Positions 2-23,832 of a stretch of DNA of 25,328 nucleotides are shown one piece after another. The number at the start of each line of letters is the position of its first letter. Position 1 is the first letter of the stretch. This stretch comes from an uncultured archaeon (GTDB lineage Archaea; Asgardarchaeota; Lokiarchaeia; Sigyniarchaeales; SOKP01), in contig CAZGJX010000063.1 of NCBI GenBank assembly GCA_964525635.1, positions 1 to 25,328 on the forward strand. Reading direction: 5' to 3'. The notes below the pieces were generated by a model. The model saw nothing but the letters and a program-made list of their open reading frames with translations. It was not told the origin of the DNA and made no database searches. A program made the position numbers and the translations under genes.

Positions 2-3000
2 AAACATTTTATATTGTCCCATTCCTGGACCATCTGATGTGAATTCTTCAGTACCTAATGATTCATAATAGATGGGAACTCCGTCCTCTGTTAAAGCACG
101 TTCATTTATAAAACCCGTACCTGCCTTTGGCATAAAACCTATGTGAAGCCAAACTATGTCTCGTCTTAAATTCCCTTCCCAGTCTGTTAACTTGAATGTA
201 AATTGGTATTCCTCCCCCGCAAGAGCATCAATAATTAGTTGGTTATATTCTCCTCCTTCCTCTAACGTCTCAAGTGGATTGATATTGAAGATATATTCAC
301 GTTCTTCTATAAATTCTTGAGTCATTACCATATCTTGGGTGATATCTTCAACCATTTCCAATTTTCTTTTCTCTGGAATGGTAATTATCCTAAATAGTTT
401 CTCCCATTTATCAGACTGCTTATATGAATAGATATTAAAGCCATTGATATTGTAGGTAATATTTTCAAAAGATTCTGCTGATTTGTTATACACTTGCGTT
501 GGTAGGTAAACTAACTTCATATTTACTAAAGTCTTTCTACCCAGAGGAAGACTTAATGAAGAATTTTTGGTAAATACCTGCTCATATTCAAAGATTCCGA
601 GGTTATATATCTCAATAAAATCAATTACAATATCATGATCATATTTATCTTTCATTGTAAGCAAAATAGTCCTGCTGAGATCTACCCGTCTTGTTAATGG
701 AGCATAGTATTTTATCTCTATTGTATCATAGACACTAAAGTTCCCTTCTTTGAGGATAAAATTATAAAGATCCAAAAGATAAAGATTATATCCATTTTGA
801 GATATTTTATACTCCTCTGGTTGGAACTCATAATATAGAGAACTATTTTCCCTTGAAATAATTTTAATTGAATAAAGATCTGAGTCTGTTTTTGTAAGAG
901 ATTGATCGAGAGTAATTGGATGATATGAGGAATAGCCGATTTCAAGCTCATCTCCCTGTTCAAAATTATAATAGGTGAAGTGAAGATATCCATTTGAGTC
1001 TATGGAGTACTCATACTCATCCTCTATGAGTGGTACATAGATATTTGAACCTGATTTATTTACATAGACGGTCTCAAGACCAATGATACCTAATCGAATA
1101 ACTTCTGAGTCCAAGAGATACTCTGGTCCTTTAATTAATGCTGTTCCTTCATTTATATTGGTATAGAGGAATTTTTTTTGAAGTGAGCAGAGCTCGGTGA
1201 AATTTTGCTCTGTAATCCATTTATCATGTATCATATCATATTTAGAAAATGGAACCTCAACTAAATTTTCGAAATTATTATGTCCGTATTCATCAATTGT
1301 GCTGTATGATATAGGATTTATTGTATTTCCGCACTGCTTTTTATAGGTAATGAGTAGATTTGTATCATAATTAATGAAATTGGATGATTGTGTATTATTC
1401 CAGTAAATTGTTAAAATAAAACTGTTATCTATATAACTAATCTCAGGATTTTTACGGTAATCTAAAATACTATTATTTTTATAGCTATATCCATCGATAT
1501 GTACATATAATGGTATTTTTTCAAGCTTTTTATCCAAATAATAAATTGCAATTTCAGATGTATTGATAAATTGTTCATTTCCATAGGGAGAGATGATATT
1601 TAACTTAAAGGATGATTCCCCATCTATACCCTCTTGCCATTTGTAATCATATACCTCATCACGAACAAGATAATTATCATTGTCAAGCACACTTCCTTTT
1701 AGGACAAGTGTATCTTGATATGTAAGTTCAAATAAATCCTTCTCTAAATATATTGGTTCTTCCTCTGATAAGGATTCTTGAGTTAAATTAAGTAAAATAT
1801 TGTATGGTTTATCAAACATTATCTTGTGAAGTGGAGTACCGAAGGATTCTAGAGTGAGGCTATGAATTCCCAAACTAAAAGGTAAATAAAGCCTTAAGTA
1901 GTAAAATTTACAATAAAATGAGGGAGGTGAGAGCTCATCAACTCTTGAAATCCAGCAGAGTGTTCCAGATGATTGTATCTGACCTGATGAGGAGTTCACA
2001 AGATTTACATAGATGTTTTGAAGTTCTTCAAGGGGGATCTGTGATAAACTACCATTGTCTCTCATAAATAATTCAATATAATCAGAGTACTCAACATTGA
2101 CATACTCCTGTGTTGCGGTGATATTTTCTTGATTATAATATATTTGAATATCTGTAAGAGTTGATTCAATTCTTTTATATTGAAAAGTGTCTGAAGCATA
2201 ATAATTATAGTAATTTGGAGCTCTTAGTTCAATATTTGAGGTAATATAACCATTAGTATTTTCTAAAAGATCATCTCCAATAAAATTATAGAGCTTTATA
2301 TCTCTAATTGCAATAATTTGATAAGGTAGACTTAAAACATCGTAATTTTCATACTCAATAGCAAAAGAGGAGGGCCATATTTCTGAATCTGAAATTGTAA
2401 AGCTAATGGACTCTAATAAGGATAAATCGAACATAACATCGGGATTAAGTAAGATAAGTTCTTCAAAATCTATATAGAGAGGGATTGTCATTACATTTCC
2501 AAGACCGAAAACAGTTTCATTGTACTTTTCTCTTACATTAGGCATGAAATATTTTCTCAAATCAAAATCGTAGTAGACCTTGGAAAGAGAATAACCAGAT
2601 ACAAGATTTAATCTTATAATAAATTTTTGAATGGTAGTATGATCGTAATAGGTGGCGGGGATGGAGACATTTACAAATAAACCATTTGCATTAACAAGCT
2701 GTAGTTGATTACTCAATTGAGATGCATCATAATTAAAGTAAATAAGGTTATCTTTTACATCTTGAGGATTGCTATAAAGATCATGAATTATTGAATTTTG
2801 GTACCAAACAACCTCACCTTCTCTTGTTATTAAAAATTGGTCTTTACCAAATATTGTAATTGAATTGTTGTTTGAACTATTATAGAAAAATGCTTGCTTT
2901 AATCTTAGAAATTTTGGTAATATAAGACCACGGTTATAAAGGTTTTCTAAGTTCATTGTAATTGTTCTATTATAACTGAGAGGATTAATAATTTCTATAT

Positions 3001-6000
3001 CTCCATCGACTAAAACATGCTTTACCACACCGTACATCTCATCATTTCTTACTTCCCAACTAATATGATTCATCGGATTTATATTTGAATATATATTGCT
3101 GCTCATCAGAGAATCCGAATAGCATAAAAATGATTCATAGGAATTAAAAATTTGAGGTAATTCGATCAATCCGATATAAGCTTGCATAATCAATGATTCA
3201 TCAACCTCATTAATACTTCCATCATAATTCACATCTGCTTCTTTAGGGTAAAATGGTTGAGGATTCATTCCTGAATTGTATTGGTTAGTTAATAGAACAT
3301 CAACGATATCAACATTACCATCATGATTCACATCACCATTCTGAAACCTAGCTCCAAAATTTACTTGATAATTATTATACTGTGGATCATACCATGCAGT
3401 CCCGTAATTGAATCCATTAATCTTTACATCTAGAAAAGGAATTTGATTGAAATCAGCCTGAAAGATTATTTCTCTCTCGCTTAAATCCTGACTATTAAGA
3501 TCTGTTGAGTTATCTATCCATGTGATATTCATCTCAGTCGAATAACTTATAGAGTCGTATAAGTTATTGTAAATTGAAGTAATTCCTACATTTTCACAAA
3601 AATCAATTATTTTATAGTTAATCCTAAACTTTTCTGGAAGAGTTCCGAAATCTCCTAGATATTGTATATTGGATGAATTAAATTGAATCCAATCAGATGT
3701 CTGACCTGAGTTAAGATCAATAATTTGATAATATTCTCTATAACAATAATCTGAAAAAGAAGAATCCCATGAATAATTGATAGTATCAATATCTAAGATA
3801 TGATTGACTCCTGACCAACTCATTTGGAACTGAAGATCATCTATATACGAGACAGGAGTTCTAAATGGAAAAGGACCATATTTTGTATTATTGATCCAAA
3901 TATAGAAGGTATCTGATGAAAGATCTTTGTATCTACCTTCTCCACATTCAAATTCAATAGTAATTGGATACCATATATTATCCAAAGCGGGACAGATGGG
4001 AATCCATTCATCCCCATATCTATACTTAAACATACCATTATTTATCCCTAAGTAAATTGCAAATATATTTGCCGAATCTGTTCCAAAGAAATAACAATAT
4101 TTATTTGCATCATTTGTTTTCGCCCAAAAGCTAATTGTCCCATGTTCTTTTGCTGGAAATTGATTAACTGCAATAGGAGATTTTTCACCATTATCATCTA
4201 AACGAATGAATTTCTTATGAAGATTCATTTCTCCACAAATCCCTATGCTAGATCCGGGATTTGTGATGATATTCCAATCATTGTCTTCTAACTCAGTAAT
4301 TATCTGTTTTCCATACGCATTTTCATTATCTTTTTCATTATAATTTGGATCTGCTGTAAAACCAAATGCATCAAAATAATATTTAAAATCAGATCCCACT
4401 GGTCTGGTTGTCAATGCAATCTTATTTGCTGAGATTATTGAATTATTTTGATAGTGGCATCCTTCTGTTTTAAGAAAACCATTGATATATACATCAAACT
4501 GATTTTGAGAATCATATAATTTAATTTTAATATGATACAATTTATTATATGTTAATCCCGACGCAATTATGTAATATAGGTTATCATTAGAACGATAATA
4601 TAATTTATCTGAAATAGATTTCAAAAATATAAGAGTTGTATCATCTTCCTTAAGTGAAATGTAAATCGTTTCTGAGTTATTTTTACCCATATAAAATTCA
4701 ATTACCTGATTTTGTTGTTGAGGGATTGATCTCCAGATTCCACAATATCCAGAATCACTTTGATCATTTAATTCAAGAACTTTAGAATGTCCATCATACG
4801 AGTCTATAATGGTTGATGAGCATCCAGATTGATCATTATTTGTCCAACCTGAGGGTGATTGTCCTACAATATCATCTTCAAAGGAATATGTACCGTAATA
4901 ATTTCCAATTTTAGATATATCATATCGTTCGAAATCCTCATTTCCGTTATAAATATCATAATAATAATTATCATCAATCTCAAAATTCGGATCTGCTGAA
5001 AATCGGAAGTTATCAAAATATCCCGCGTATCCAAAATGTGCACCCACCTCTGTCTTTATCTTAATCTTATTTACAGAAATGACTGTATCACCAATATAAC
5101 TTAGCCCAGAACCTTCAGGAACTCCGTTGATATAGAAATCAAATGTATTTGTATCATCATTTAGCACTATTTTAAAATGAACCCATGTATTTGACCCAAT
5201 AAAATCAGTCTTTATATCTTCAAATAAAAATTTATATTCATTTAATTCTATATTTATATTTTTCATATCGCCAATATAATGGTATATATCTTGTTCCAGA
5301 TAATACATAGATACATTCATAACTTCATAATCTGCGATAAAAGTGAAAATTTGGCTGTTATTGAGGAACCTAATCCGAGGTTCCCGTAAATAACCAGTAG
5401 GATTGTTCATTCTGAGTAATAAATCTGAGTATTCTATATCTAATATAATATTTTGAGCCTCTTGCTGACCTTGATCGAATAGGTAGCATAAGTGCTCCCG
5501 TACCATTAATCTCTGGCGTGTTTTCATGCTCTTTAGGAATCCTCCGGCAATTCCAATATCAGAAGCGTTGTCATTTGGTAAAATTTCAATTGAATTATCA
5601 GGTTTTATAATATAGTTAGGAGCATCAATCACCTGCAATTGATATGGGAACTCATATTCATAAGCGGAAATACGCCTAGTTTTAAGCTTGGTATATTTTA
5701 CATTGAGGTCGTATTTATTCAAGGTTAATTCTGCCTCTATTTGAATCTTGGAAGATCCTATTGATTCTATATAGCTTATACAATTCCATTCATACTCTAT
5801 TTTAGCCCTTAAATAGTATTTATTATGATCTACTGAATAAAATATAAACTCCTTTAGCTGTTGTGTTGATAAAATTACTTTAGAGGTATCTGTTAAATTT
5901 ATATTTTGAAATTCTAAATACTTATCAAGTAAATAGAACTTATAATTTTGTTTTATTAATGAATTTTGTAGAAAAATCTCATTATTATCATAATTTAATT

Positions 6001-7420
6001 GGGAATTATAATCTAAATTTAATGTTACTTCTTCTATTGTATTATCTTTTGATATTAAATATTCTGTTAAATCTACATCAAATAATACCTCTGGGTTTAA
6101 ATTATGGCTTGTAGTAGGTGGATTATAGTAAATTGTTGCATCAATTGAAGTAATATCAAATCCAAGCTGGGTGGAATAGGGAATTTCATTGGAAATATCA
6201 AATTCCATTGAAAAAATAACTTGAAATTCAAACTCATCAGGACTTATTTCATTGAAAAAATCTTCAAACACAATGAAATTACGATCGAGAACATAAGAGA
6301 AGGCTGGATTAAATACATTAGAATTCTCTTGATCAATATTTTGGTACACGACTGCTTGTACCTGCTGCCAAACATTTCTACGATAATTATATAGGTATAA
6401 TGATAAAAGATTAGCATTTTTATTCTCTTCTATTAGTACTTGACGACCAGAATCCTCTGAAAAATCCCTCAGTTCATACCCAGCAATACCATTTTTTTCA
6501 TATTGAACTGTAAATTCTATAAACTTTGTATATTTATTTATATAGTTCTCCGTGCAATTGAATGTTATAGGATCAAGTGTGGAAATCCTATTCTTCTCCC
6601 ACTTAAATGACTTAAAGATAATATTTGCCGTTAAAATCGCTGAATATTGTGAATAATTACCCAATAGCGTAATAGTTTTTTGTGAGTAATCAAAACTATA
6701 ATCCTCTATCTTAAGTTCATTTTCACCGGCAAAAAGAGTATTTATTGTGAAATCTTCTTGATAATTCAACTCATTGAGATCGAATTGATAATATCCTGAA
6801 TAAAGATTGGATAGTTCAATATTATTTTGCCAAATTGGAATATAAGCATTCTGTGCGGTCGTTCCATTGTAATTTAAACTATTATCTGGAGAATCAAACA
6901 GAATTGAAGCATTTGTTATCTGTGAAGCAAAAAATCCTTTAAAGAGAGGGGAAAGGACTTCACAGTTCGCAACTGTCGATTCAATTGAGATTACCAGATC
7001 ATTGTCTAAAGATTGTGTTAACGCTTCAGCTAATATTTGCTGATTCTCACTGACAAGGTTAAACTCGCTTAGCTCAATTTCCAACTTATGTAGATGGAAA
7101 TCAAGTCTATCAGTATCTAGGGGAATATTAACTGTTCCTATATATGTAAATCTTTCTGATTTGCTTAGCTTATATAGGTTGACTGCAACGTGATAATCAC
7201 TGGATACTACTTGAGAAAGCTCGCTGTATGAAATGTCGTTGAATCCTGTTTTGATATCTATCAAAAGTCTTGCATCAATAAGATCATTAACTTCATTTAA
7301 AATCTCATAATTACATAGGACATAATCTGTAATAGGAATACCAAAAATATATCTATCGTTATTTTTAGAGAAATGAATGGTTGCTCGTGGAATTCCTACA
7401 GGGGGGTTGGTAAAATTCAC
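2..7420 (-). CDS. Giant extracellular multidomain protein, 3'-truncated by the window edge (at least 2,473 aa from GTG 7420); probably the frameshifted continuation of the upstream giant protein; contains a dockerin and ConA/LamG-like repeats
   Basis: Manual codon-by-codon translation shows no stop from 7438 down to 2. The nearest upstream in-frame stop is TAA at 7439-7441. The frame reads DEFGICVNFTNPPVGIPRATIHFSKNNDRYIFG...SLGTEEFTSDGPGMGQYKMF. It is absent from the ORF track, presumably because it has no stop inside the window. Composition is rich in Asn, Asp, Tyr and Ile, like the upstream ectodomain. Confidence 0.92.
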   Translation of the reverse strand, partial: MNFTNPPVGIPRATIHFSKNNDRYIFGIPITDYVLCNYEILNEVNDLIDARLLIDIKTGFNDISYSELSQVVSSDYHVAVNLYKLSKSERFTYIGTVNIPLDTDRLDFHLHKLEIELSEFNLVSENQQILAEALTQSLDNDLVISIESTVANCEVLSPLFKGFFASQITNASILFDSPDNSLNYNGTTAQNAYIPIWQNNIELSNLYSGYYQFDLNELNYQEDFTINTLFAGENELKIEDYSFDYSQKTITLLGNYSQYSAILTANIIFKSFKWEKNRISTLDPITFNCTENYINKYTKFIEFTVQYEKNGIAGYELRDFSEDSGRQVLIEENKNANLLSLYLYNYRRNVWQQVQAVVYQNIDQENSNVFNPAFSYVLDRNFIVFEDFFNEISPDEFEFQVIFSMEFDISNEIPYSTQLGFDITSIDATIYYNPPTTSHNLNPEVLFDVDLTEYLISKDNTIEEVTLNLDYNSQLNYDNNEIFLQNSLIKQNYKFYLLDKYLEFQNINLTDTSKVILSTQQLKEFIFYSVDHNKYYLRAKIEYEWNCISYIESIGSSKIQIEAELTLNKYDLNVKYTKLKTRRISAYEYEFPYQLQVIDAPNYIIKPDNSIEILPNDNASDIGIAGGFLKSMKTRQRLMVREHLCYLFDQGQQEAQNIILDIEYSDLLLRMNNPTGYLREPRIRFLNNSQIFTFIADYEVMNVSMYYLEQDIYHYIGDMKNINIELNEYKFLFEDIKTDFIGSNTWVHFKIVLNDDTNTFDFYINGVPEGSGLSYIGDTVISVNKIKIKTEVGAHFGYAGYFDNFRFSADPNFEIDDNYYYDIYNGNEDFERYDISKIGNYYGTYSFEDDIVGQSPSGWTNNDQSGCSSTIIDSYDGHSKVLELNDQSDSGYCGIWRSIPQQQNQVIEFYMGKNNSETIYISLKEDDTTLIFLKSISDKLYYRSNDNLYYIIASGLTYNKLYHIKIKLYDSQNQFDVYINGFLKTEGCHYQNNSIISANKIALTTRPVGSDFKYYFDAFGFTADPNYNEKDNENAYGKQIITELEDNDWNIITNPGSSIGICGEMNLHKKFIRLDDNGEKSPIAVNQFPAKEHGTISFWAKTNDANKYCYFFGTDSANIFAIYLGINNGMFKYRYGDEWIPICPALDNIWYPITIEFECGEGRYKDLSSDTFYIWINNTKYGPFPFRTPVSYIDDLQFQMSWSGVNHILDIDTINYSWDSSFSDYCYREYYQIIDLNSGQTSDWIQFNSSNIQYLGDFGTLPEKFRINYKIIDFCENVGITSIYNNLYDSISYSTEMNITWIDNSTDLNSQDLSEREIIFQADFNQIPFLDVKINGFNYGTAWYDPQYNNYQVNFGARFQNGDVNHDGNVDIVDVLLTNQYNSGMNPQPFYPKEADVNYDGSINEVDESLIMQAYIGLIELPQIFNSYESFLCYSDSLMSSNIYSNINPMNHISWEVRNDEMYGVVKHVLVDGDIEIINPLSYNRTITMNLENLYNRGLILPKFLRLKQAFFYNSSNNNSITIFGKDQFLITREGEVVWYQNSIIHDLYSNPQDVKDNLIYFNYDASQLSNQLQLVNANGLFVNVSIPATYYDHTTIQKFIIRLNLVSGYSLSKVYYDFDLRKYFMPNVREKYNETVFGLGNVMTIPLYIDFEELILLNPDVMFDLSLLESISFTISDSEIWPSSFAIEYENYDVLSLPYQIIAIRDIKLYNFIGDDLLENTNGYITSNIELRAPNYYNYYASDTFQYKRIESTLTDIQIYYNQENITATQEYVNVEYSDYIELFMRDNGSLSQIPLEELQNIYVNLVNSSSGQIQSSGTLCWISRVDELSPPSFYCKFYYLRLYLPFSLGIHSLTLESFGTPLHKIMFDKPYNILLNLTQESLSEEEPIYLEKDLFELTYQDTLVLKGSVLDNDNYLVRDEVYDYKWQEGIDGESSFKLNIISPYGNEQFINTSEIAIYYLDKKLEKIPLYVHIDGYSYKNNSILDYRKNPEISYIDNSFILTIYWNNTQSSNFINYDTNLLITYKKQCGNTINPISYSTIDEYGHNNFENLVEVPFSKYDMIHDKWITEQNFTELCSLQKKFLYTNINEGTALIKGPEYLLDSEVIRLGIIGLETVYVNKSGSNIYVPLIEDEYEYSIDSNGYLHFTYYNFEQGDELEIGYSSYHPITLDQSLTKTDSDLYSIKIISRENSSLYYEFQPEEYKISQNGYNLYLLDLYNFILKEGNFSVYDTIEIKYYAPLTRRVDLSRTILLTMKDKYDHDIVIDFIEIYNLGIFEYEQVFTKNSSLSLPLGRKTLVNMKLVYLPTQVYNKSAESFENITYNINGFNIYSYKQSDKWEKLFRIITIPEKRKLEMVEDITQDMVMTQEFIEEREYIFNINPLETLEEGGEYNQLIIDALAGEEYQFTFKLTDWEGNLRRDIVWLHIGFMPKAGTGFINERALTEDGVPIYYESLGTEEFTSDGPGMGQYKMF
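3155..3340 (-). other. Dockerin domain (duplicated Ca-binding loop-helix), internal to the protein
   Basis: NGDVNHDGNVDIVDVLLTNQYNSGMNPQPFYPKEADVNYDGSINEVDESLIMQAYIGLIELP has two DxNxDGxxxxxD loops, each followed by a helix, with canonical dockerin spacing. Confidence 0.9.
3764..5220 (-). other. Three tandem concanavalin A/LamG-like beta-sandwich repeats (the first is partial)
   Basis: The repeats end in YFDNFRFSADPNF, YFDAFGFTADPNY and IDTINYSWD. Internal motifs align across copies: NTWVHFKIVL..FDFYING / NKLYHIKIKL..FDVYING / NIWYPITIEF..FYIWIN; DGHSKVLELND / NLHKKFIRLDD; VIEFYM / GTISFWAKT. Confidence 0.7.
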
Positions 7421-10400
7421 ACATATTCCAAACTCATCTTAAATATAGAATAATTAGCTGGAACATTAGGGATCATATCTCCGTAGTAATTAGCCTCATC
7501 TCTAAGATTGCTTATTGAAATTGGATCAGAATAATAATATGAGCTATTAGGAATATACCAACGCCCATCAAACAACTCAAGTGGGAGTGAGGGGAGATAT
7601 TCAATACTTACATTGGTAAATAACTCTTTTTGAGAACATTGTTCTAAAGATAATTTATTATTGTGGGTTACAAGAAAATTAAACACAGGATATTTTTCAA
7701 TAGTATTTTCCTCAATTCTAATACCATATACTTTAACGATCTCTCCAATAGCAGGATCATCTACCCCATTGAGATCAACTTCAAAATTATCTTCAATAGG
7801 TAATTCCACAGCAAAAGTCGATGCGGGGAAAATAGTCTGCCTCTTTTCAAGAAGCATAACGCATTCATTTATATTAACTTGTTGGCTAATCTCAATCGCT
7901 AGATTAGGATTTACGCGTTTGAACGCTTCATATATATTATTATTAGCTGAATAATTTGAAGGTAGAATATATGAGATTAGAGCCAACTTCATGATTTGAT
8001 TGTTATCAAGATAATCATTTGTTAGACCTTTGATTTTAAAGGGATTCATGAGTTTTAAGCTAGGATTTTCATTTTGAATTTCTATAAAACAATTCGCATC
8101 AGGAGATTGAATATAATAGAATGGATTCGAGGAGTAATTATAATTCCAAACTGCTCTATTTATACCATTATTTTCTGCTCTGATCTGTCCATTGAAATCC
8201 TGCCATTCTTCAGTAAGATAATTATAATATACTAACCTGCTTCTTAAAAGCCAATCTGTATTGTATTTCCTATTCACTATGGTGATATTTAGCCCTAAGC
8301 TTACTTCCAACTCAGCTAAGTCGTAAATATTGAGATCCAAATTATCAAATTTTAGCTCTATGGGTGTAATTAGTGGTATCTGAATATTATCTATTGCGCT
8401 ATCCTTAAATCTGTCTAAACCATAATTTAATTCAGAGATATTATACCTTTGAGCATCAGATCCCCATACATTATATGTCTGGCTTGGAAAATCCGAGGGA
8501 TAAAGGTTAAAGATAAATTCTAAATCATCTAGCTCCAGATCGGTGTAAATGGTCTGGCTTTCTCTCTTGAAAATTGGAGTTATTAAACTATTTTCTAGAC
8601 TAAATTCTATTGTATTATTACCAAAAAAGGTATTATTTTTAATTTTTGTATTATCGCTAGATTCAGGTGGATCTGTATTATCATATATTTTGGATATATC
8701 TGAATTAATTTGAATCAATTTATTATTGATTGGATAATAGGTAATATTTGTTGAAATATCGTAAATATAGAGGGAGTCTATTTCTAATTCCCAGACATCA
8801 TCCCAATATCCTAAATCTATTGAAATACTCTCAACATCATATATAAAACAAGATCCTTGTATACCAGATTCTCCAAAAGAAAAGAGTGTATTATCATTTA
8901 CTATAAAATTGGCTGTTCCCTCTAAAGTGGAGCCTTTAAAGTATAAAATGAAGTCTCTTTCTGAATTTAGAAGACCATTCTGAAAATTAAATTGAACTTT
9001 TGATTCAATAGGAATGTAATAGAGAGTAGCATGTGCCATATCACAATAATAATCTACTATATGTCCTATCACTTTATCGTTTGGATTAGAATATACTTTA
9101 GTCATTATATCTATATTTCCTTCTGGAGATATGTAATGTGATAATAAAGAATCTATTAAATGAGTCTTATTAAAAACACTTATTTTATTAAATCGATAAC
9201 AAGTAGGACTAGTCTCTTCTGGTGTATAAGAATGATCAATCTGATCCCATTCTTCAGTATAATGATTATATATAAAATATGCAAGGCTTGCAGAATCAAC
9301 ATATTTCCATACTATATTATTTTGAAATTCAATTTCAATATCAGATATTACCATATCTTCATTATAATCTAAATAATTAGATGGAATTCTGTATTTCTCA
9401 TAAGACCTGGTCCATGACCAAATTTTATTAATATGATAGTACCTACTAATTCCATCTATCTCAGCAGACCAATCTCCTGAGGGAAAAGATGTGTCCAGAA
9501 TAGGTGGAGCTCCATCATAACTTACATGAAAATCCTCCCAGATACTTTCTCTAAAGCTATTGTTATCTTTACTATCAAAAGTCTCTCTCTGAATGGATAA
9601 CAAATTCCCATCAGGATAATACAGATCAGTCTCATCCCCTTGAATTATTGCATATGTATCCATCATTTCTACAGCATAACTAAATTTTAAAGAATCAGAA
9701 TGGTCTAAGAGGAGAGAGTCTTCCCTATAGGAAAAATTAGTAATATTATCTTGATATGTATTTGATATGTATGTTGGATTTAAATCATAGGAAAAAATGT
9801 TCTGAGGTACCATCTCATCTGCAAAGCTGTAGATTACGTCAATTTGGGAAGTCAGGTCAACGAAGGTATTATCTCCAATTAATCTACTGCTATATTGATC
9901 TAAATCAATATATTTAGTGTATACAGCTCGTTTACAAAGCGAGACAAGATACTTATAATCGGTAAAATCATTTTGATCTCTAATTCTTTTGAAATATTGG
10001 GATTTAAGTGATGTAATTTTTATTCCTTCGGAAGGATCATCATAGAAGCATTCTATACGGGGCACAAGTCTATGGAAAGTGGGATCATACAATCTTCCCA
10101 TATCCCCAAAATGTTCTATTGGATTATTATTATGATATGCATACCAATAATATGTGCTGGAGTTATAATAAAATGAAACTGTATTTTTCTCAGTCAATTC
10201 CTCCTCATCCAAATATACATAAATATTATCATTCAATGAGAAGCAGATCTTTCCTTCTTGCCCTTGTATAGGACTTAACTTACTAAATTGCACTTCTGCT
10301 CTGTACATATCATGAAGACCGTTCCATGGTTTATATACAACTGAATATACCGAATCAAATGAAAGAGAAAATGAATCTTGGGAATTACATTGAAGAAATA

Positions 10401-13400
10401 GTCTTACAACATAAGAATCGCTGGCAGAATCAAAAAGCCGATAGAAATCATTATATTCAAATCTTAATATGATATACCCATCTTCAAGAATTGGAGTAAT
10501 TAATCTATAATTGTTCTCAATATAATCCCAATATCTGTATTTGATTTGCTCCAATAAAGAGAGATCTGAATTCCCTTTCAATTTAATTTCAAATTTAATT
10601 GCATCATCCAAATTTTCTCCATATATTTCCTCGAATAAGAATTCAGCTTCTATAGTATTTTGAGTTATAAATTCTGAATTAATGATCCATATTTGCCCAT
10701 CATCTTCATGAGCCATTGAAGGTGTTGTAGGATATGCAGTTGAGCCCCGTATAATTTGGGGATATTGTGGATTATTTTGCTCGATAAACTCATATCTTGA
10801 GGATATTGAATATAAATCTCCAAATGATTCTTTCTGAGCTTTAATATCATATATAATAATATTTTCAGTATCATCAAGATATCCACAGATCTTTAATTGG
10901 TCAAATGTTAACTGAGTAGGGATTTGAATTGATATAGAACGATGTGTAAAATCATTATTTCCCTGAGGAATTAGAGTATATTCATCTACAAATTCCCCTT
11001 CATTGAATAATTGTATTTTAATTTCATTGGAAGTGAAAGGTTTGCAATCAATTATTAGAGCATCCTCGGAACTAAGCGTATTTGAAGAATATTGAGGCGA
11101 ACAAATGGAGAGATGCTCATGAGTGTCTGTCTGTAAAAACATATATCCTTGGTCTTGGTAAAATTTCGAAAGGTAATGGGTGAATTGAGGTCTATATAAT
11201 TGATTCTGAGCTTCGCTTGAATAAAATCCAACCAATTCACCTCCATTATTCATGTAGAAGCTGTCATCGTATATAGCATCACTTGTAAGAGTGATAATTT
11301 CAGTTGGGGCGCCTAAGATTAGAGTCTGATATCCTTGACCCAATGAATCAACAGTTGATAATAGATTCAATCTATCCGGTTGATTCCAATAGTGAAGTGA
11401 TTGTTCATTGAAATAATTAGATTCATATATATTAAAGTAAGGTCGCTGAGTTTGAGTGACATACAACTGTAACTCGGAGTCTTTCCAATATCCATCTGAA
11501 AGATATGGTATATCATGCGATAAATACACATTACTCCACTGAAAATTATATTTATATACAAATCCAATGATACCATTCTCCAACATCCAGATATATCTTC
11601 CATCAAAACATACTCCTTCTGGGGAGGAAATAATTGGAGAAAGTTCGAAATTATAATCCAAGTAATTGCCTTCTAAATCATAAATGTAAATAAAGTTACT
11701 TTCGCTTGCAAACCAATGCGCTCCATCAGTCCAAAAACAATCAGCATTCTCATTCTGTAGGATGATTTTCTCTTGTGTATAGATTAAATCATTAGGTGGG
11801 AAATTTTCTTGATTGGATACTTCTACTAATTTATATATTACATTATCATCAACTAGAATATATAAGTAAGGAGAATTATAGTAAATATCTTTTATATCAT
11901 GATACCCCCATGGTGGTTCTTCATGGAATATCTGCACTATATCATAGTCCCAATAATCCCCTTCCATTTTTAACCTAGATGCAAACAATGTATTTCCATA
12001 ACTATCTGTTTCAATAACCCAACAATATTTCCAACCCCAATAATTATCAACTCCCATATCAATACATATAGGAATACCGTCCCATAGAGATATATCTTGA
12101 TTTTTATTTAGATAATTTCCATTTGAATCGTACTTATATACATAATCTCCGGCTAATACCCAATAAAATTCTCCATCAAACGCGATATCTTTTGTCCTTT
12201 CAATTCCATCCTCATCAACACTATAAAAATCCCCTGAATAATCGAAATTCCCTTGAACTTTTAGTGTCTGACTATCTCCGAAGTTTTCCAAGCTATATTC
12301 AGAAGAGACATATGTATCTGATGCTGCATATGTAGAATATATAAAAGTTCCATCAGTTCCCTCAAATTGCCATGGAGAATATAAATTATCTTGGAATTTT
12401 ATAAGCGGTGGATTTTCTTTAATATTAAATCCGCTGTCTCCGCTTAACATTAATCCATCCGAAGTTAATTGGATTCCATCATTTATATGAGATCTCTTTT
12501 GATAAGGAGCTTTCAATTTGTAAACTTTATCGTCTTCAGTGATTATATAATTTTCAGATATAGTGACAATTTGATCACCCTCATCTATTTGAGGTGTTGC
12601 TATTTTATAGTAGTTATTATATTTTCTCATTTGAAAGATTTCATTCGTTTCCATATCAAATCCAATGTTATATCCATTTTCATCTAATATGTTACTATCT
12701 CGCGTGAAAATTACATTACTTTCTCGAATACGCTTATATTCATCATCATCAATATTATATGAATAAAAATAGTGTTTACCATCGGTCATATCTTTTAAAA
12801 TAAAAGAAATGGTCTCATCTCCATCATAATTTAATGTCCTCAAATTAATATTAGAAGGAATCATCATATTTTCCCCAAAATCTATCTGTGACCATAATAA
12901 TCTTGTGAGATCATGATATTCCTCATCTTTATTATCATTTGCCCAAAGTTCTACCTTTCCATCACTCCACTGCCATAATATATAAGTAAATCCATTATTA
13001 GCTGTACAAGTCCTTGATGTAGAAAAAGTCCTTCCAGAAGCGGGACCCATATCTTGTCGCCCTTCCCTATCCTCGTCTTCTATCGATCTAAACTGTAACC
13101 AACCCTTAACTATTCCACTCGATTTATATGCTCGAACAGTAAAATGTTGATTTTGATCCTTATAGATATCTACATTCGCATTATAATTGCTTACGGAAAT
13201 AGGATCTCCACCATATATACTATAATTATACACACCCCCAGCACCATAATAAATATTCTCTTCTTCTCTATCGTAAAAAATGGTATTAGATCCAAGACCA
13301 AAATCTATAACGCTCCATGTTCTTCCTCCATCAATTGAAGTATATAAGAAATAGCCATCGAAATTAGGGAGATAGCCCATAATAAATAATCTCCCATTTT

Positions 13401-16400
13401 CAGCTTCAATGAAAGTACTTGCTTCATTGATAATTGGATCATTAAGATTTATAACATAACTCCATTCTTCAACCTCTCCAAAATGTTCATATTCAGCCAT
13501 AATTTCGGGATTTGAATTCTCAAAATTATCGTAATTCAGATAATTTGAGCTTAACTGCGCATAGGTCTTAAAATCTCCAATGCATAAATACTCATCAGGT
13601 AAGTCAGATTCTTTTGTTGTGATTATTCTTACTTTAAACTCCTGCTCTGAGTTTACAAATTCTCTGAAGAAATCCCTTTCTGTAAATTGAGTCTGTGAAG
13701 TCGGCGCAGGGAAGTTATTACTACCTGTGGTGTAGAACTCATGGGGATTGATTTTTATGCTATTTAGCTGGAACCTGTTTGCGTTAAATAAATCATCGTA
13801 AAATAATACTTTATGGCGATCTATACCTTCATCTTCTTCGAAGCTCCAATAGTTGTTCATCGAATACTCATTATTTTTATTATTTTTCAGGAAATTGGCA
13901 CCAGAATAGGGATCGTATATAATTTCATCGAACCAAATGGCATCATCAGTGATTTCCATAGGAACACAATTACCGAAAGATACGGTATTTAAACTCAATA
14001 TGTTCTTAGTATACCAAGCAGGACGGAAGGCATCTATATGGTAGGGAGCTTGCCATGTCCAGAAAAGATAATTTAACTCTTTGAGAATATATTTTCCGTT
14101 CTGAACGGTCGAAATAGGTAATGCCTCCCACGAGTCGGTATAATAGTTCCAAATTTGAAGTGAGAGAGGGTAAGAACTAGCTGTTGAGATGACACTTGCA
14201 TCAAAAGAAAGAGAGATGTCTAATAAGCCCTCCTTGTCCACAAGCGGTAATTTATTTGTGATTTCAAGACCATATACACTGTCTTGGTCCGACATTGCTA
14301 ATGCAATATATTCATCCCAATCATCCAAGGTGTATGCTATTTCTCTTTCTGAGCCCATCTGGGGGCTAAAAGCTGGATTGAATGGGAGAATTCCAGAGGG
14401 AACGATTCCTGACTGGAATTGATCTGCTAAAATGTTGTATTCGGTAAGCGAGTTTTTAACAAATAAAGTCTGTAGCCCGCTATAATTATTATATATGCCT
14501 TCCTCTGAGGCATCGTGAATAGAATCGTAATACATCCTGCTGAAATTATACGATTCAGAAAGGGATGGATTTGAAAGCCAAGTACCGTCAATATAATTAT
14601 TTTCCTCAAATTCTTCATACCCCATTAAACTTTCTGATAACATAGCGGAACCATAATCTCCTCCATAATCAATTAAACTGTTAGAAAGCTCGGGCATATT
14701 GAAATATTCAGAACTTGTATCATCATTCCAACCAGATTGTACTTGGGGGTAGGCAACTGTACTTCCAATTCCAGATATTACAGGGGTATATTGGTAATTA
14801 ATACCTCTTTCATTCCATCCTGATATAGTTGAGAATTGTCGCCAATCTGCATTAGGATTGTACCAAGATGTTCCTGGATTTAACCATTGTAGAGGGAGTG
14901 TCGATATATCGAGAAACGTTCCCGAGACAGACACCGAATGAGCATTAGGATTTGCATTATAAATCTTAAATGATGGATCTATTTGAGCCTTTTTCGTATC
15001 TGAAAACGATAAAAATGAATAACTTATTTTTATGAACTGAATATCATCCCAGAGATCTTCTAAATTAATCCTGATTTGATTGTAGCTGTTGCTATAAAAT
15101 GCCTGATCAAGCTTAATCCATTGCCCTCCAGATTTATACCATATATTATTAATTTCTTTGATTTGGATATGCTTTAATTGGATGATTGGATATTGCTCTG
15201 GAGTGAGATCTTTTTTTCCAAATGTTTCACTTACATAACATATTGGAGATAGTATTGTAGAGACATCCTCTATATAATCTATTAATGACTCAAATAAGCC
15301 TGTTTTAGAGGCAATTATTATTTTATCATAGTTATTTTGTGTTATTGTGAGTAGATCAATTATTTCAAATCGAATTTCATCAAAACCAGAAATTTCATAA
15401 GAAATCCACTCTTCTTGCTCACTGCTGTATTTTAAGCTAATAACGGCGTCCATCTTCCCTATTTTTAGTCTTTCGACGCCGATTAAAATAGTATCAATTC
15501 CATTAATATTCTCATGTTTAATACAAGATATTTTTCCAAGAATATAGTCGCTAATTATATCTTTATAATTTAGCGATAGATCAAATTCAAACAACTGTGA
15601 TGAATAGCTGTTATGCATTAATCCGCCAATAAGAATGGAATTACAATCACTTTCTCCAAAATTAACCACACCTTTAATCATCGTAGGAATAAAATTCTCT
15701 GGAGCAGTCTCATATTTAACTACATCCACATCAAAACTGCTTAAAAATCTATACTTCCAAAAAGTAAATTCCTGAGATGTATCCAATTGTGCCACAAATA
15801 GGTATGAATCCGAGGATTCAGGAGCCTGAAATATATCATAACAGAAGTATTGATAATCATGAAGTTGAGTAATATTTGATTTACATTTCCATTGGGAACT
15901 TCCAAAATACAGTACATCAATTTGCCCATTACTGAGACGAATGATTTCTGGAATATTATCTTGGTCAACATCAAAGAGTTTAAAGGATTGGCTTTCAATA
16001 CAATTAATATCTACTTCTTCACTCTTTTCGGGATCTATTAACCATCCAGAAGAATTATCAAATTGATATACCTCAATATTTATTTTACCACCTTCATCTA
16101 AAATTAGAATTGGTTGCCAATTATCTCCAAATTTTCCCCATGTACCCCAGATCGTCTCTCCTGTTAAATAACCTATCTTCATAGGTAAATAATCATAGCT
16201 AAAATCTCTCATCTGTTCAAGGAAAAATTCATCATCATTAATATCCCAGATTACTTCATAATCTCCTGATTCCATGATGGTTGTAGACTCAATAGCTAGG
16301 TTAATCCATTGGTCCTCAATAGGCGAATAGTATTGAACGATAACGTCCCATAGCTCTGATGGACTCTCGAAATTCTCTATTATTCCCGAGAAATTTACAG

Positions 16401-19400
16401 GATTATAATTACTTTTATCATCATAGGAAATACACTCTCCAAATATAGTATCCGCTAGTAATTGTACTGATGAGTAATCAAATATTCTTAAATCTCTGAT
16501 TTCCTTTAAGAGGTTTCCAGCTCTGTCAAGTAATATTATCTTTATATAGATAGTATCTATTGGAATTTCATCCAATGAGTCTACATCCCAATAATACGCC
16601 CATTGTCCAAATTCATTCCAGTATCCTCTTCCAAGATAAGTGAAATTGGTTTGACTACTATTGGAACAATAAAGATAGATTCTATCAACATCAGATTCCT
16701 CCAAATAATTTAATCTAATGGATGTTGTATTTATATAAATTGTGGAATCGCTTGGATCTTCCGAACCAGCGATTAAAATACCCTCACCAAAAGATGTAGT
16801 TCCCAGAAACCATGAGAATAAACTTTCTCCCACAAATTCGAGAGAATTATCATAAATACACAGATATTTAGAGGATATATATTCATTTGAGACAGTTCCA
16901 TTTATTTGCCCAATTCCATCCACAATTGAGAACCATATTAATAGCTCATCTCCTTGATCTAATTCCAAATAATGAGATATGTTAAAATATTCATATCCAG
17001 ATGTTAGAATCTGCCAATAGGAAAATTCATTTATGAACGTAAGCGGTAAAGGTTCTTCAATTAATTCATAATAGAGGGCATCAATTTTGTAAGAATTTTG
17101 TGGAGATAATAGATATCTATATTGTTCATCAAATTCGATAAATAACTCATCATTCTCACGGTAGACATTAAACTCATCTACTATACGATTATCAATTCGA
17201 ATCTTCTGTATTTCGATTATTTTATCAATATCTCCCGTAATTTTGTATAGTAATTTGTTATAATTGAGTGAACCTTCTATGCTTACATCATACCAACTAA
17301 GGGTATTGGTGTAATGCATGTACACTTTTTGAATTCCCATTTGCTCTGCAATTGTGGTATTGATACCGTTCCAACTAAATGAATCGAATAACTCATCATA
17401 AGCGGTCAGGTTAATGTATTCTTGATCATTAATGTAGATAATATCATCAAGAGATTGGGAGTATACTATTTCATTATCAACATATACATTGTCCATAAAA
17501 TCTACCAACACAGGAGCGGAATTATCAAAATATCGATCCTCAATAATTAACTCAATTTCATTTCCACAGAAATCAGTTACACCTATAATTAAATCGAAAA
17601 GACCGTTTGGCAATTGATTCGTATCTAAGATTACGTTAGTAAGGCTTCCATCCTCGATTAAAGAGATATCAAGATTGGAATAGATATCTCCTGTGGAAGA
17701 ATTTCTTGCTTTAAGAGTGATACTATAGGGTGAAAGATCAAAAATATTAAATTCAATGCGGAATAGTCCGTTCCAGTATTGGGGATTTGTATAGATATTT
17801 TGTAAAATAGGTGGTGATCTGTCTAAAATTAATGAGAACTCATATGAACTAATCTGATTTAGAGAATCCTTTGCAATAAGCCTAATATGATGAATTCCCT
17901 CAAGAATTTGTGTATCATTAAAATGAAAGATATATTCATTATTATCTGTAGTAGTCCAATATCCATTTATCTCTGAATTATTCAGATAATAGTTGTCTAT
18001 ATCAGATAGATCTTGTAAAATAAATGAGATCTCTCCTGAGTTGGGATTTACTGAAATTCCATCCGAAAACTGAGCATAAATTTCTGGACCTGAAAAATCA
18101 ACTGATTGAGTTTGAGTAAATAATATAATTTCATTTGAGATATCAGTAAACTTTGTAATTGCTGTATATATTCCCTGAGGGAGATTCTTAAAGTTAAGAG
18201 ATCCCTTGTATTGATTATTTTCTCTGTAGGAATTTGTATATGAATAATATATCTCAATAGGAATAGATTGTCCATACTGCCCATCTAACAATTGTCCTGA
18301 TATTATTTTTATAGAGAGATGGGAATCATCAATAAAATAATAAAATTGGTATTCAGTTGCATTAATAATTACTTTATCAATGGTAATAATTGCCTCTTCA
18401 GATAAAAGATTTGAAGGAAGAGGTAAAATAAATTTATTTGAAAGTATTTCTATTTCATCCTTATCATAGACCTCAGTACGAGATCCATCTGTAATTGGAG
18501 CAAGATTAACTGTTCTAATTAGCTGATCCTGCTCATTATATAATGTGAGAGTTGGTATTTGATTTTTTACAATATAGGGCACATTATCCCGATTACTATA
18601 GGTATTTTGCAAATCCTCAAAATTTACCCATATATTGTCTTGAGCACTGTTAATATCTATAGAAACATCAGTGATATTTACTACTTCGGAAAATGTGCTA
18701 TCCGTTGAGGTAATAATTATTTTCCTTGAAGATATTAGGTTATTTTGCTGATATAATTCAATATTTAGTGGAATTTCTTTAAATTCTCCACCAAAAATAT
18801 TGTAATACAATCCATTTAGCTTAATTTCATTTCCCAAATCTGCAAAATAAATATAATTATCTGTTAAATATCTTGTCGTTAAATAAAATGTCTCATAAGC
18901 CGTATAAACCTTTACTTTTGTGATATCATTATCATATGGTCTTATTGTAATGTTAAGATTAATCTTCTCCTCCTCATCTAATCCATAAATAATGGTATCA
19001 TCTATCCCCTCAAGTTCGAAATAGAGATTTTTGTTAAAATCTTTTACAAATCTGAATGATTCGTTATAATATTCCCTATAATTTTCAAGGAAATCGAATG
19101 GTTTTAACATAAATTCGATTTGATCATCTTTCAGACTCCAGATGTTAAAAGTAAAATTAATTGGGGAGTCGCCACCTTGAAAAGTATCATAATAGCTCCA
19201 TTGGGTGCTTTCTGTTGTGAAATATCTGTAGTACAATTTGAAATGGCTAAAATCGGGTGAATTAGGGGTGATCGCACCAGTTAAAATATAATTGCTCGAA
19301 TCTGTATAGGTCTTTTCAAGGTCGAGGGAATATGATTGATTAAGCAAGAGTGAGATAAAAGGCGCTTGGAAATCGATCATTGTCTCATTTAGGCTGTAAT

Positions 19401-22400
19401 TAAAGGAGTAAAATGGAAAAGCGTCTCCATATGAATAATTACATTCAATCGTAAATGATGCATTTATTTCTTTCCCATCCAACTCATAGATATCTCTCCA
19501 ATCTTCTAAAGAATCGAGATTCATTAAGAAATAATTTTCAACAAGCACTGAATAATTAACAGTTGTGAGTAAATCTATGTTATTTGAATAATTTATATAA
19601 AGATTAAGCGAGGATATATGCTCACTTATATCCTCATGGGGAATCACTGCAATTTCAGAATCAATTCCGATTTTTCCAATAGAATCAAGATAAGTAAAAT
19701 TTATTACATTATCAAAATGATTAATTCTAATACTTTTATTGTAATAATCATATGCTCTGTTTTTCCAATAATCTTGCACTTTTGTAACTAAATACCATTC
19801 TCCATCGGGGAGTTCATAGGAATTTTTTACCAAAGCATAACTTTCGTTATCATAATAATAACCTCCAATTAAATGTAACAATGAATCATTGATTTGAATA
19901 ATATCAGGTGGTGCAGTACTTAAATAAAATTCCATTGAATCTACAAACGCGGTTTGATATGAAAGCATATTAGTTTTAAATAAGATGTAAGAGTCTATTA
20001 ATTCCTGAGACTGATCAAGATCAATCCAACCGCCTGAACCATCTTCTTTAAATATATTACATTGAGGAATGAGTGCCTCAACTCCTTTATGCTGTTCAAC
20101 ATCGTTTCTCGATATAGCTTTCTCATAAATACTTATATCATCTAATTTTCCCGTAAAATATGAATCTCCCGCACTATTAGAGCCTACAGTGAGATTACCT
20201 AGAATTTCTTCATTATTAATGAGGTCTCCGCAGTTCAGCCAAGGCTCTTCAATTCCTCCATTTGCAATTTCATACCACTCATTATTTATTCTAACATCTA
20301 TATTACTTTCATTGAAAATAATTGCTATATAATTCCAGTCTCCAATTACAATACTCCCTTCTGATCCATATGTAGCAATGGTCTCAACATTTTCAGTATT
20401 TAAATATACCTGCAATTGACCAAGCTCATTTATCCCAAACTGGATTGTTCCATTTTTTGATATAAAGGAATTTTTAATACTATTTCCATTTTCAATTGAA
20501 TTTAATTCAAATGGTTGAATCCATGAGGTAATGGTGAACTGGTTAGAGCTATTTAGCTCATCGTATAGAATATTACCAAATTCAACATGTGCAGAGTTAT
20601 TATAGTACAATGAATTTCCATGGATACCCCATGTTCTTATAGGATTATTTGTTAATTTTCCATCATAATTATTTACGTTGTCATACGTATTGATACCTGA
20701 GGATTCATTAAACTCTAGCATGAATGAAAGATGGTTTTCACTTGTCCAAGAGGGGGGTGGATTAGGAGCAGTCAATGCTTTAATTAAATCATAGACAGAA
20801 TAACCCCAGTCGGGTAGGTCATCTCCATTGGCATCTGGAAAGAATTTTTCTCCATCTTCGCTTATCTCTAACCCTGCATATTCGATAAACTCCATTTTAT
20901 TATAGAGCCCATTACCTTGAGATTCAATTTTTGCAAGTGCATTAATCTCAAATGACGAATATATCTCAGTTTTGTAGTAAAACCTTCCCTTTTCGTCAGT
21001 ACTTACAGTAGCAAGTTCCTCCCACTTATTACTTTTCTCAATATATAACGTTATTTCTTTGTGAGGTAATGCTTCTCCTGCTGAATTTACTAGCTTACCA
21101 TCAAAATATACTGTGAAATTGCCACCATTATCAATTGTATAGACACTCCCAAAATTAACTTCTTCATTGTTTAGCTCTTCAATCCCAATAACATGTAAAT
21201 CATCCTTATTTAGTGTTATATCATAAACTTCAGGTTCAGAACTCTTCCATGAGAGAGCACTATATTCTGAGTAATAGACATACATTTCATAACCACCAGG
21301 GATTAGGTCAAGTTTATTTAGCTCGCCATAGGTGAATAGATTTCCATTTTTCAGAGGACCATTTAGATAACAGGAACGTATATCATAATAGGATTGCCTT
21401 ACCCTATCTTCTACGATATTTGGTAATGATTTATTAGGGATCAGTCTAAAGAGCATTTTGGATGATTCAGAAATTCCTAATGTGCTCTCACATTTAGCTA
21501 TAAACATGTCATTTATTGATAAATCTCCTAAATTATTGTAACTACCAAAAGTTAAGGAGTTAAGATTAATTGCAGAGCTCTCTACTCTATCTACTCGATC
21601 GACTTTGGCAAAGGATATTTTTGGCATATCAATATTAATAAGAGACTGTATACCAAAAATAGTGGGGAGGAGAATTAAGAAAATCAAAGCTAGTACAGAG
21701 AAAGCTTGATACTTTCCCCGAATTTCAGGCTCTAGAGCGTTATTAATAACATTCTCATTCTCTACATCCAGAGCTTTTTTTACTTTTTTCGATATTTTAA
21801 CATGACTTTTTAATTTCCTTTTACTTTTCATCCGTAGATGTCTTGCCAACATCACAGAGGGTGCGCTCATACATAAAATTGGTATCATTGTGAATGCTGG
21901 ATAGATTAGGTATAATATGATTGATACGAAAAGGAGGATTAAAATAATATAAAAAAGAGCCATTTTTTTTCTTCCATGATATTGAATAGCATTTGCCTCT
22001 TTATCTCGCAATAATTTCAGTATTTTTTTCCTCTCTCTCATTAAAATCTCTGTAATTAGGATAAAAACAGGCATTATCCAGAGAGAAATTGTTCTATATC
22101 CAAAATAATTCAGACTAATTGATATTGTTATAATACTTGCCGAGACAAATAAGAATAGATATTTCGGAAATCTAAATTCTGAGAATTTATTGTTTTTAAT
22201 AGTATAGATGCTGGTAATTATAATCTGTATTAATAGAAATAAAGTGTTATAATTTGGTCCATTTTTAGGCTCTGAAAATAAGAATTTGCAGAATGGTAAA
22301 TATGATATAAAAAATATAAAAATAAATATTAATAGAAAGTTTTTAATTGTCTTTCTACAATCATATGTACCTTCTTTTTTGAAATTTCGCGTCCATATAA

Positions 22401-23832: not shown

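Follow-up and report, generated by a model that had tools for sequence, protein, structure and literature searches.

Relation to known systems

Polymorphic toxin and contact-dependent inhibition (CDI) systems such as CdiA-CdiI, Rhs and MafB (Zhang et al. 2012, PMC3482391) combine a very long stalk with a conserved junction and a variable C-terminal cassette, and a comparable plan was found, at the family level, for the giant gene described here, which occupies most of a contig (C63; GenBank CAZGJX010000063.1) of an uncultured Asgard archaeon of the Lokiarchaeia, whose proteins have relatives named Candidatus Lokiarchaeota archaeon in NCBI. The window analyzed is this complete contig of 25,328 nt, and the window edge is therefore the contig end. 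Throughout the text, G000 denotes the source genome (4.45 Mb, 245 contigs, 26.8% GC), C-numbers its contigs, and G001, G201, G216 and G259 related genomes; the gene is split into two open reading frames (ORFs), A and B, the protein of the latter being referred to as P0002. As a whole, the observations were best explained, with about an even chance of being right, by the anchored stalk of a CDI-like giant family, of which the C63 copy is broken and has gained a dockerin.

The likeness to polymorphic toxin and CDI systems extends in the paralogues to spare cassettes elsewhere in the genome and to an adjacent, co-varying cytoplasmic partner gene. The Asgard family differs from them, however, in that it is anchored by an N-terminal module of 11 helices rather than by a T5/T6/T7 (type V, VI or VII) secretion domain, that its stalk is non-repetitive and has no FHA, RHS or YD repeats, and that its tails avoid N-x-S/T glycosylation sequons and carry no recognizable toxin, pretoxin or releasing peptidase domain, the partner being a leucine-rich repeat (LRR) protein. 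Searches of Pfam and NCBIfam for a known trafficking domain (T2/T5/T6/T7 signal, RHS/FHA repeats or a releasing peptidase) found none, and the cassette end is missing from the C63 window. Polymorphic toxin systems are generally scarce in archaea (Zhang et al. 2012, PMC3482391).

Among giant proteins, those of Omnitrophota exceeding 10,000 aa are mostly unannotatable, carry dockerin and carbohydrate-binding modules, are predicted to be largely extracellular and have been proposed to act in attachment to another cell (West-Roberts et al. 2023, bioRxiv 10.1101/2023.11.21.568195). The Asgard family resembles these dockerin-type giants in size, in being mostly unannotatable, in the dockerin and carbohydrate-binding modules, in its largely extracellular prediction and in the suggested role in attachment. 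The Omnitrophota proteins are bacterial, however, and have no transmembrane (TM) segments over most of the N-terminal part but C-terminal TM and intracellular regions, whereas the polytopic anchor of the Asgard family is N-terminal; the dockerin of the C63 copy is, moreover, single, apparently recent and missing from the orthologues. In a survey of archaeal proteins of more than 5,000 aa, a single N-terminal Laminin_G_3 was typically present and was the only common Pfam domain; 12 such proteins were counted in Lokiarchaeota, and the function is said to be "not understood" (PMC11573180). Giant genes of Asgard archaea, among them "unrelated giant genes across Asgard archaea" (Wu et al. 2022, PMC8813620), have also been mentioned in two studies that did not analyze their function (the other being West-Roberts et al. 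2023). The present family, matched by description and not by sequence, probably belongs to the catalogued Laminin_G_3 set; these surveys (PMC11573180, PMC8813620) contain no topology, family definition, or analysis of tails or partners.

Three further comparisons were made. Like the cellulosomal systems of Acetivibrio/Ruminiclostridium, the source genome combines a Dockerin_1 domain having two calcium loops with cohesins on membrane-anchored proteins; unlike in cellulosomes, where dockerins terminate enzymes, the dockerin lies midway along a giant stalk that is not enzymatic, the host is archaeal, and the binding is predicted. The Heimdallarchaeial aloposon genes Otus and Ephialtes were compared by description, and none of their features (two distinct giant genes, integration at a tRNA gene, four upstream genes including a ParA/MinD type) was found in C63. 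Repeat-type adhesins and S-layer proteins (SiiE, LapA, Bap and halomucin-like proteins), which are characterized by a signal peptide or T1SS signal and by tandem arrays of near-identical Ig/cadherin-type repeats, differ from the C63 protein, which has a polytopic anchor, no tandem repeats and no PDB sequence match apart from dockerins. In the literature on Asgard polymorphic toxins, giant genes and dockerins, no description of the stalk-tail family was found.

Membrane anchor and topology

The coding sequence occupies the minus strand from position 23853 through base 2; it is interrupted once, at 7417-7420, and has not terminated where the contig ends, giving a combined length of 5,478 + 2,473 = 7,951 codons; the contiguous coding with a single frame break reported in the preliminary description was thus confirmed. 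ORF A (7417..23853, minus strand; 5,478 codons) encodes the N-terminal domain and the TM module together with the initial 4,730 aa of the ectodomain, which is continued by ORF B (2..7420, minus strand; 2,473 codons), itself truncated by the contig end. In public gene calls ORF A begins with the ATG at 23832 (5,471 aa), and the NCBI protein P0008 is identical in sequence to ORF A.

As proposed in the same description, the protein begins with a basic domain (aa 1-380; 22714..23853, minus strand), whose content of Lys and Arg (K+R) reaches 22.9% against 15.5% of Asp and Glu (D+E). This domain is predicted to be cytoplasmic, shows a normal sequon count and appears to be an orphan sequence, as aa 1-322 matched nothing besides themselves among 1.84 billion representative proteins. 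It is followed by a polytopic membrane module (aa 384-738; 21640..22702, minus strand) of about 11 helices, on which the hydropathy profile and the helices of an AlphaFold2 (AF2) model agreed, and which contains a Y-H-x-x-K motif (aa 625-629), assigned to the cytoplasmic side, ahead of the ninth helix. The model itself (pLDDT 56.7, pTM 0.36) was too poor for a fold search. When the 11 helices were placed with the N-terminus inside, the inner loops contained 40 K+R residues and the outer loops only one. Because of this distribution, everything after aa 738 is assigned to the outside, which agrees with the preliminary assignment of the large domain and is contrary to its placement in the cytoplasm. 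No hydrophobic segment was detected by hydropathy downstream of the module in either ORF. These observations thus supported a polytopic N-terminal anchor bearing a cytoplasmic basic domain, the huge remainder of the protein being extracellular.

The N-terminal module is very rare: it gave five matches, including itself, among the 1.84 billion representative proteins. Homologous N-modules were found on C21 and C5, in G001, G201, G216 and G259, and in the proteins P0004-P0007. No match to the module was obtained in Pfam or NCBIfam, and none that was usable in the Atlas. Among these relatives, conservation extends to the last five helices, the Y-H-x-x-K motif and the segment that first emerges outside the cell, whereas the first six helices are retained poorly or not at all and the N-terminal domain is not conserved.

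A single gene interrupted by a frame break

At the break (7417..7425, minus strand) the sequence reads TAT GTG TGA, and the GTG of ORF B overlaps the stop codon of ORF A (GTGA). In comparison with all homologues aligned, there is a surplus TG within TATGTGTGA, a (TG)3 run, and the break therefore amounts to a +2 (equivalently -1) shift at (TG)3; the homologues read Y-x-(I/L)-(N/D)-F at the junction, where C63 has TAT GTG TG AAT TTT. The paralogues on C5 and C21 and the orthologues in G001, G201, G216 and G259 (6/6) each possess a single ORF collinear across this junction. Because six relatives cross the junction in one frame, the comparison indicates that ORF A and ORF B are one ancestral gene and not two designed genes. 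The structural description of the encoded protein, taken together with its origin from one broken gene, is accordingly held with high confidence.

A variant of ORF A in JGI/IMG (P0003, on a contig of 33,720 nt) differs at two residues (G2163C and K2176N) and shares the stop with ORF A. Since the same stop thus occurs in a second, non-identical assembly, the break is probably real rather than an artefact. ORF B was found to have no signal peptide and no TM segment as judged by hydropathy, so that, at face value, only the anchored part of 5,478 aa would be exported. It appears quite possible, if somewhat short of probable, that the C63 copy is currently disabled, e.g., recently inactivated or switched off.

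Two candidate explanations that would join the frames were rejected. A tRNA-type mini-intron was excluded by the residue-for-residue collinearity and by the surplus of 2 nt, not about 30 nt, and a programmed frameshift found neither a slippery heptamer nor an RNA structure downstream (z = -0.34). The sole frameshift route remaining, re-pairing from GUG to GUG at +2, is speculative.

The break could therefore be inactivating, in which case the C63 copy would be a decaying pseudogene whose distal part and dockerin are unused; this would fit either of the functional readings of the family weighed below. The identical premature stop in two non-identical assemblies, the missing export signal of ORF B, the missing frameshift-stimulating RNA structure and the in-frame TGA that is also present in the paralogue on C5 are all in line with decay. 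On the other hand, the 7,951 codons contain no other stop or shift, the GTGA overlap permits re-initiation, and +2 re-pairing of a tRNA-Val from GUG to GUG is conceivable over a slow UGA codon. ORF B, in addition, stays open for 2,473 codons at 30% GC, and for this reason any inactivation must be very recent. On balance, a pseudogene appeared to us a substantial possibility, though one that falls below an even chance.

The in-frame TGA of the C5 paralogue (locus L008, 14,266 codons) is a single one, at codon 1541 (G000:C5:63999-64001), in a frame that is otherwise open, and the other paralogues have E or N at this position. A "frame break" in the C21 paralogue (G000:C21:25456-25591, loci L012/L013) was rejected as an assembly artefact, being a scaffold gap of 100 N with identical stretches of 18 codons on either side. 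In attempts to extend C63, no contig end was found to overlap it, and exact-pattern scans of metagenome contigs gave no match; the middle part that is absent from C63 has no further copy elsewhere in the metagenome-assembled genome.

Insertion of a dockerin into the stalk

The dockerin and the laminin G (LamG) module named in the preliminary description both scored above the Pfam cut-offs (39 and 61 bits, respectively). The former is a type I dockerin at aa ~1357-1425 of P0002 (3146..3352, minus strand; PF00404, 39.4 bits against a cut-off of 22.9), in which the Pfam match spans aa 1362-1413 and both calcium loops of the D-x-N-x-D-G type are intact (DVNHDG and DVNYDG). It constitutes a precise insertion of 67 aa between two conserved blocks, and the site is free of a dockerin in all six homologues compared (C21, C5, C9, G001, G201 and G259). 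Judged by this comparison, the dockerin insertion is recent and unique to the C63 copy. Dockerins carried by other proteins encoded in the source genome share 60-67% identity with the inserted domain. The C21 paralogue has a dockerin at a different position, directly past the membrane module, and the C5 paralogue has none among its Pfam matches.

The source genome gave 25 dockerin and 8 cohesin matches in total, the cohesins being located on C10, C110 and C90. The cohesin proteins on C10 and C110 (3/4 examined) combine an N-terminus resembling a signal with a TM anchor at the C-terminus, while the C90 protein is without an anchor. The dockerin would thus let the stalk join membrane-anchored cohesin scaffoldins of its own cell or of a neighbour, a binding that is predicted from the domain content. 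In the C63 allele as it stands the dockerin would not be exported, because the break lies upstream of it. As a side observation, the C10 and C110 cohesin proteins end in PGY(D/N)LFIFLGSLWI...RKRRQ, and this ending looks like a sorting signal of the PGF-CTERM/archaeosortase type rather than a plain anchor.

The giant stalk-tail family

The most conserved part of the family, aa 1426-2473 of P0002 (2..3145, minus strand), is modelled as an all-beta string of immunoglobulin (Ig)-like sandwiches. This conserved core was present in 22 of the 400 Asgard genomes searched, namely the source genome, 20 of 134 others of the same family and one genome of another family, where it lies within stop-free frames of 11,241-20,619 aa. 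Over segments of 600-3,100 aa, the C63 protein shows 31-49% identity to its relatives (the paralogues on C5, C21 and C9, the orthologues in G001, G201, G216 and G259, and others). Two of the features used to assign it to the family were found, i.e., collinear homology including the conserved core, and a homologous N-domain and TM module. A search for homologues among proteins of 4,329-5,000 aa found none.

Four of the relatives examined are full-length (11,376, 12,745, 13,906 and 20,619 aa), and they share with the C5 paralogue (14,266 codons) a common plan of N-terminal domain, TM cluster, stalk, hydrophobic segment(s) and tail. In the full-length relatives the stalk comprises 9,000-17,000 residues without hydrophobic segments and is followed by one or two hydrophobic segments and a final tail of about 800-2,500 residues. 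The largest member found is a single frame of 20,619 codons (G216:C13:86445-148301) in a genome reported as 100% complete in 30 contigs. C63 is one of several paralogues, and its functional end is missing from the contig; two 5'-open tails, on C129 and C85, could belong either to C63 or to C21.

As to the gene neighbourhoods, an ABC-2 type transporter pair (ATPase and permease) lies directly upstream of three giant genes, on the same strand at G000:C5:69628-71557 and G000:C9:61379-63329 and on the opposite strand at G001:C69:29300-31245, and is absent from the C63 window. IS66 transposases occur near the C5 paralogue.

Variable tails and LRR partner genes

The results on tails and partners all come from relatives, the C-terminus of C63 itself being unassembled. 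All eight tails examined contain zero N-x-S/T sequons over 1,086-2,683 residues, where 7-21 per tail were expected (z = -2.8 to -5.4 by shuffling of seven tails). The genome-wide median of observed to expected sequons is 0.94, and the tails are the longest sequon-free stretches of the genome. This desert begins 270-560 aa ahead of the hydrophobic segment and spans both sides of it. With a K+R content of 10-15%, the tails have a cytoplasm-like composition. Conservation is limited to the first ~400 aa, beyond which the copies could not be aligned with one another. Extra tail cassettes were detected on C4, C91, C96, C26, C70 and C147.

At the 3' end of the giant gene in C5, C129, C85, G259 and G001 there is an adjoining gene for an LRR protein composed of a conserved N-domain and LRRs. 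These partners (330-520 aa) possess no export signal and have a normal sequon count, and they look cytoplasmic on these grounds. The N-domain gave about two dozen matches in the source genome, and the LRR partner belongs to no known immunity family. In all three cases that could be tested, the closest relative of a tail stands beside the closest relative of its partner, the identities of tail and partner being 48% and 70% for C5/C96, 69% and 80% for C129/C70, and 29% and 43% for C85/C26.

A "tail-only" gene on C4 (G000:C4:6837-13670, 2,278 aa) begins at the conserved junction, has one sequon against 18 expected and is accompanied by its own LRR partner gene in convergent orientation (about 14355-14930). 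Headless copies were also seen on C91 and C9.

Proposed mechanism and alternative explanations

By analogy with polymorphic toxin systems, a delivery or recognition mechanism may be proposed for the family, to which we assign a probability a little under one half. In this mechanism, the basic domain would reside in the cytoplasm, the chain would cross the membrane about 11 times, and the lectin-like and Ig-like stalk would extend outside and reach a neighbouring cell, where the bare C-terminal unit would insert into or cross the target membrane. The tail would meet the glycosylation machinery yet have to stay unglycosylated, as it would later enter or cross the membrane of another cell, and the LRR partner would neutralize or recognize the matching tail. 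As for the C63 copy, only the anchored stump would be exported, and the gained dockerin would plug the stalk into cohesin scaffoldins. In its fullest form, the proposal would mean that Asgard archaea of the Loki type possess a contact-dependent delivery or recognition machine of their own, i.e., a single polypeptide of 11,000-20,000 residues with an 11-helix anchor, exchangeable bare cargo and an LRR match, which within this genus is also being tied by newly acquired dockerins to a cohesin scaffold; this complete version we regard as rather unlikely.

Several points weigh against the proposal. The composition of the tail and the hydrophobic segment preceding it also fit a second anchor with a cytoplasmic C-domain that binds an LRR adaptor, and the tail of the C63 copy is deduced from paralogues, as the assembly lacks the C-terminus of this copy. 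Pfam searches of the terminal 500 aa of the eight tails (E<=0.1) revealed neither a toxin nor a peptidase or pretoxin domain, and C-terminal stretches of 1,939-3,000 aa from four tails gave nothing at E<=0.01 except a noise-level Macoilin match. The overall confidence of both AF2 models is low (pLDDT 56.7 and 52.5), and the two assemblies that share the stop may share reads, in which case the break could be a common artefact.

The first of these points leads to a different picture, in which the protein would be a doubly anchored surface loop or adhesin-receptor having a C-terminal TM segment, a tail in the cytoplasm of the producer and an LRR adaptor, with nothing delivered; its role would be attachment, surface coat or signalling. 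All relatives have a conserved hydrophobic segment followed by a tail with 10-15% K+R, in line with this picture, and it would likewise accommodate a cytoplasmic LRR partner, tails in which no toxin domain was found, and a stalk bearing lectin-like and Ig-like modules and a dockerin. It leaves the total loss of sequons unexplained, however, since counts are normal both in the basic N-domain and in ordinary ORFs and the sequon-free zone begins 270-560 aa before the hydrophobic segment and covers both sides. Moreover, the polymorphism of the tails, the orphan cassettes and the co-variation of tail and partner are typical of conflict systems. We therefore consider a doubly anchored loop unlikely, though it is the main rival of the proposal.

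Returning to the delivery or recognition mechanism, the preliminary description had preferred a cell-contact receptor or an export apparatus. A role in cell contact fits the variable tails and cognate partners, but an export apparatus found no support, and nothing in the data points to the transfer of genetic elements that had also been suggested. That the polytopic module is a channel devoted to exporting or translocating the ectodomain or mobile DNA is accordingly very improbable: eleven helices do exceed the needs of anchoring, and the last five are conserved together with the cytoplasmic Y-H-x-x-K motif, but no similarity to transporter or secretion families was detected in Pfam, NCBIfam, the Atlas or the 1.84 billion proteins, relatives either lack the first six helices or conserve them poorly, and the window contains no ATPase or DNA-handling gene. 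Finally, two separate tandem giant genes of the aloposon Otus/Ephialtes type within a mobile element, as might be imagined from the adjacent giant ORFs (5,478 and at least 2,473 aa), from Asgard mobile elements with tandem genes for 3,000-6,000 aa (Wu et al. 2022, PMC8813620) and from the IS66 transposases near the C5 paralogue, can practically be dismissed, as they are contradicted by the six of six homologues that are single-frame across the junction, and as the window contains no tRNA gene and the upstream 1.5 kb no recognizable gene and none of the ParA/MinD type.

Composition and modules of the ectodomain

The ectodomain of about 7,200 aa is acidic (K+R 6-7%, D+E 14-15%) and has a normal overall sequon density. 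No internal repeats were detected at E<1e-3 in the 7,951 aa, Pfam domains were recognized over only about 5% of the protein, and sequence searches of the PDB with all 7,200 ectodomain residues retrieved dockerins only. The view that the protein is not a known S-layer protein or repeat-type adhesin was borne out, as internal repeats were absent and LamG and the dockerin alone matched any PDB or Pfam family.

The ectodomain had been described as a multi-ligand assembly of LamG, Ig-like, FG-GAP-like, Asp-box, propeller, DNRLRE-like, concanavalin A (ConA)-like and dockerin modules. Of this list, LamG and the dockerin were verified, while the rest could be verified only in part. A Laminin_G_3/ConA-like lectin domain lies at aa 1087-1252 of ORF A (20098..20595, minus strand; PF13385, E 1.7e-16, 61 bits, above the cut-off). 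ConA-like modules were detected as three ConA-like/LamG-like units at aa ~640-1250 of P0002 (3680..5503, minus strand), but their scores, Laminin_G_3 at E 5e-5 and a Sialidase-like carbohydrate-binding module (CBM) at E 1e-4, fell just below the Pfam cut-off; repeated units related to them occur on contigs C106, C70 and C167. As for Asp-boxes, a single motif was present (aa 3506-3513; 13315-13338), but multiple copies were not found. The DNRLRE/CBM96-like start at 12244-12330 is a sub-threshold match only, and neither FG-GAP calcium loops nor a propeller could be found in ORF A or ORF B by Pfam and motif searches.

The Asp-box and the DNRLRE/CBM96-like start both lie within a sequon-poor cassette (ORF A aa 2660-4220; 11194..15876, minus strand), in which 4 sequons were counted against 17-20 expected; aa 3543-4564 of ORF A, 1,021 residues, are without any sequon. 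The G216 counterpart of the cassette is likewise depleted (4 against 12 expected). The cassette centre, aa ~3450-4210, has no match in the paralogues on C5 and C21, and the cassette overlaps the sole stretch of the gene with a higher GC content (13000-16000, GC 0.35-0.37).

The Ig-like modules found support in the conserved core. Within aa 1426-2473 of P0002, identity in most matches was 41-49%, with a few distant ones at about 26%. An AF2 model of this part was all-beta with a mean pLDDT of 52.5 and three confident sub-domains, and Foldseek related it, with low TM-scores (template-modelling scores), to strings of Ig-like sandwiches in adhesins, to complement MG domains and to integrin legs. 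The same search returned chain P (602-607 aa) of the human Sec61-TRAP-OST translocon (8b6l and 9n9j; probability 0.99-1.0, 240-284 columns), which may represent generic beta-sandwich similarity only. The Atlas search with the conserved core gave no usable match.

Beyond the giant gene, the upstream region of the contig (23854..25328) is AT-rich and has no recognizable genes. An ORF of 83 aa on the minus strand (25070-25321) would encode a two-helix membrane protein; it has paralogues on C14 (56%) and C58 (31%) and no Pfam match. No tRNA gene was found in the window, nor was any tandem DNA repeat in its coding part.

Biological significance

Of all known lineages, Asgard archaea are the most closely related to eukaryotes, and to our knowledge little is known of how their cells touch, recognize or fight other cells. 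The contribution of the C63 window itself is more limited: it supplies the anchor and stalk of a copy that is probably disabled, and helps mainly to define the N-terminal module, the topology and the event of dockerin insertion. Reaching 20,619 aa in a single frame and possessing a very rare anchor module, the family would rank among the largest protein families of archaea. The dockerin insertion, its binding being predicted, suggests that a giant fibre is being recruited into an archaeal cohesin-dockerin surface network, and the complete lack of sequons from the tails may offer a way to recognize, from sequence alone, archaeal protein parts that have to cross or enter membranes after export. 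The stalk, the bare swappable tail and the matching partner gene follow the logic of bacterial conflict systems; if the proposed reading is true, the family would represent an archaeal counterpart of CDI/Rhs built from unrelated parts, which could bear on how Asgard cells discriminate between and hold their partners.

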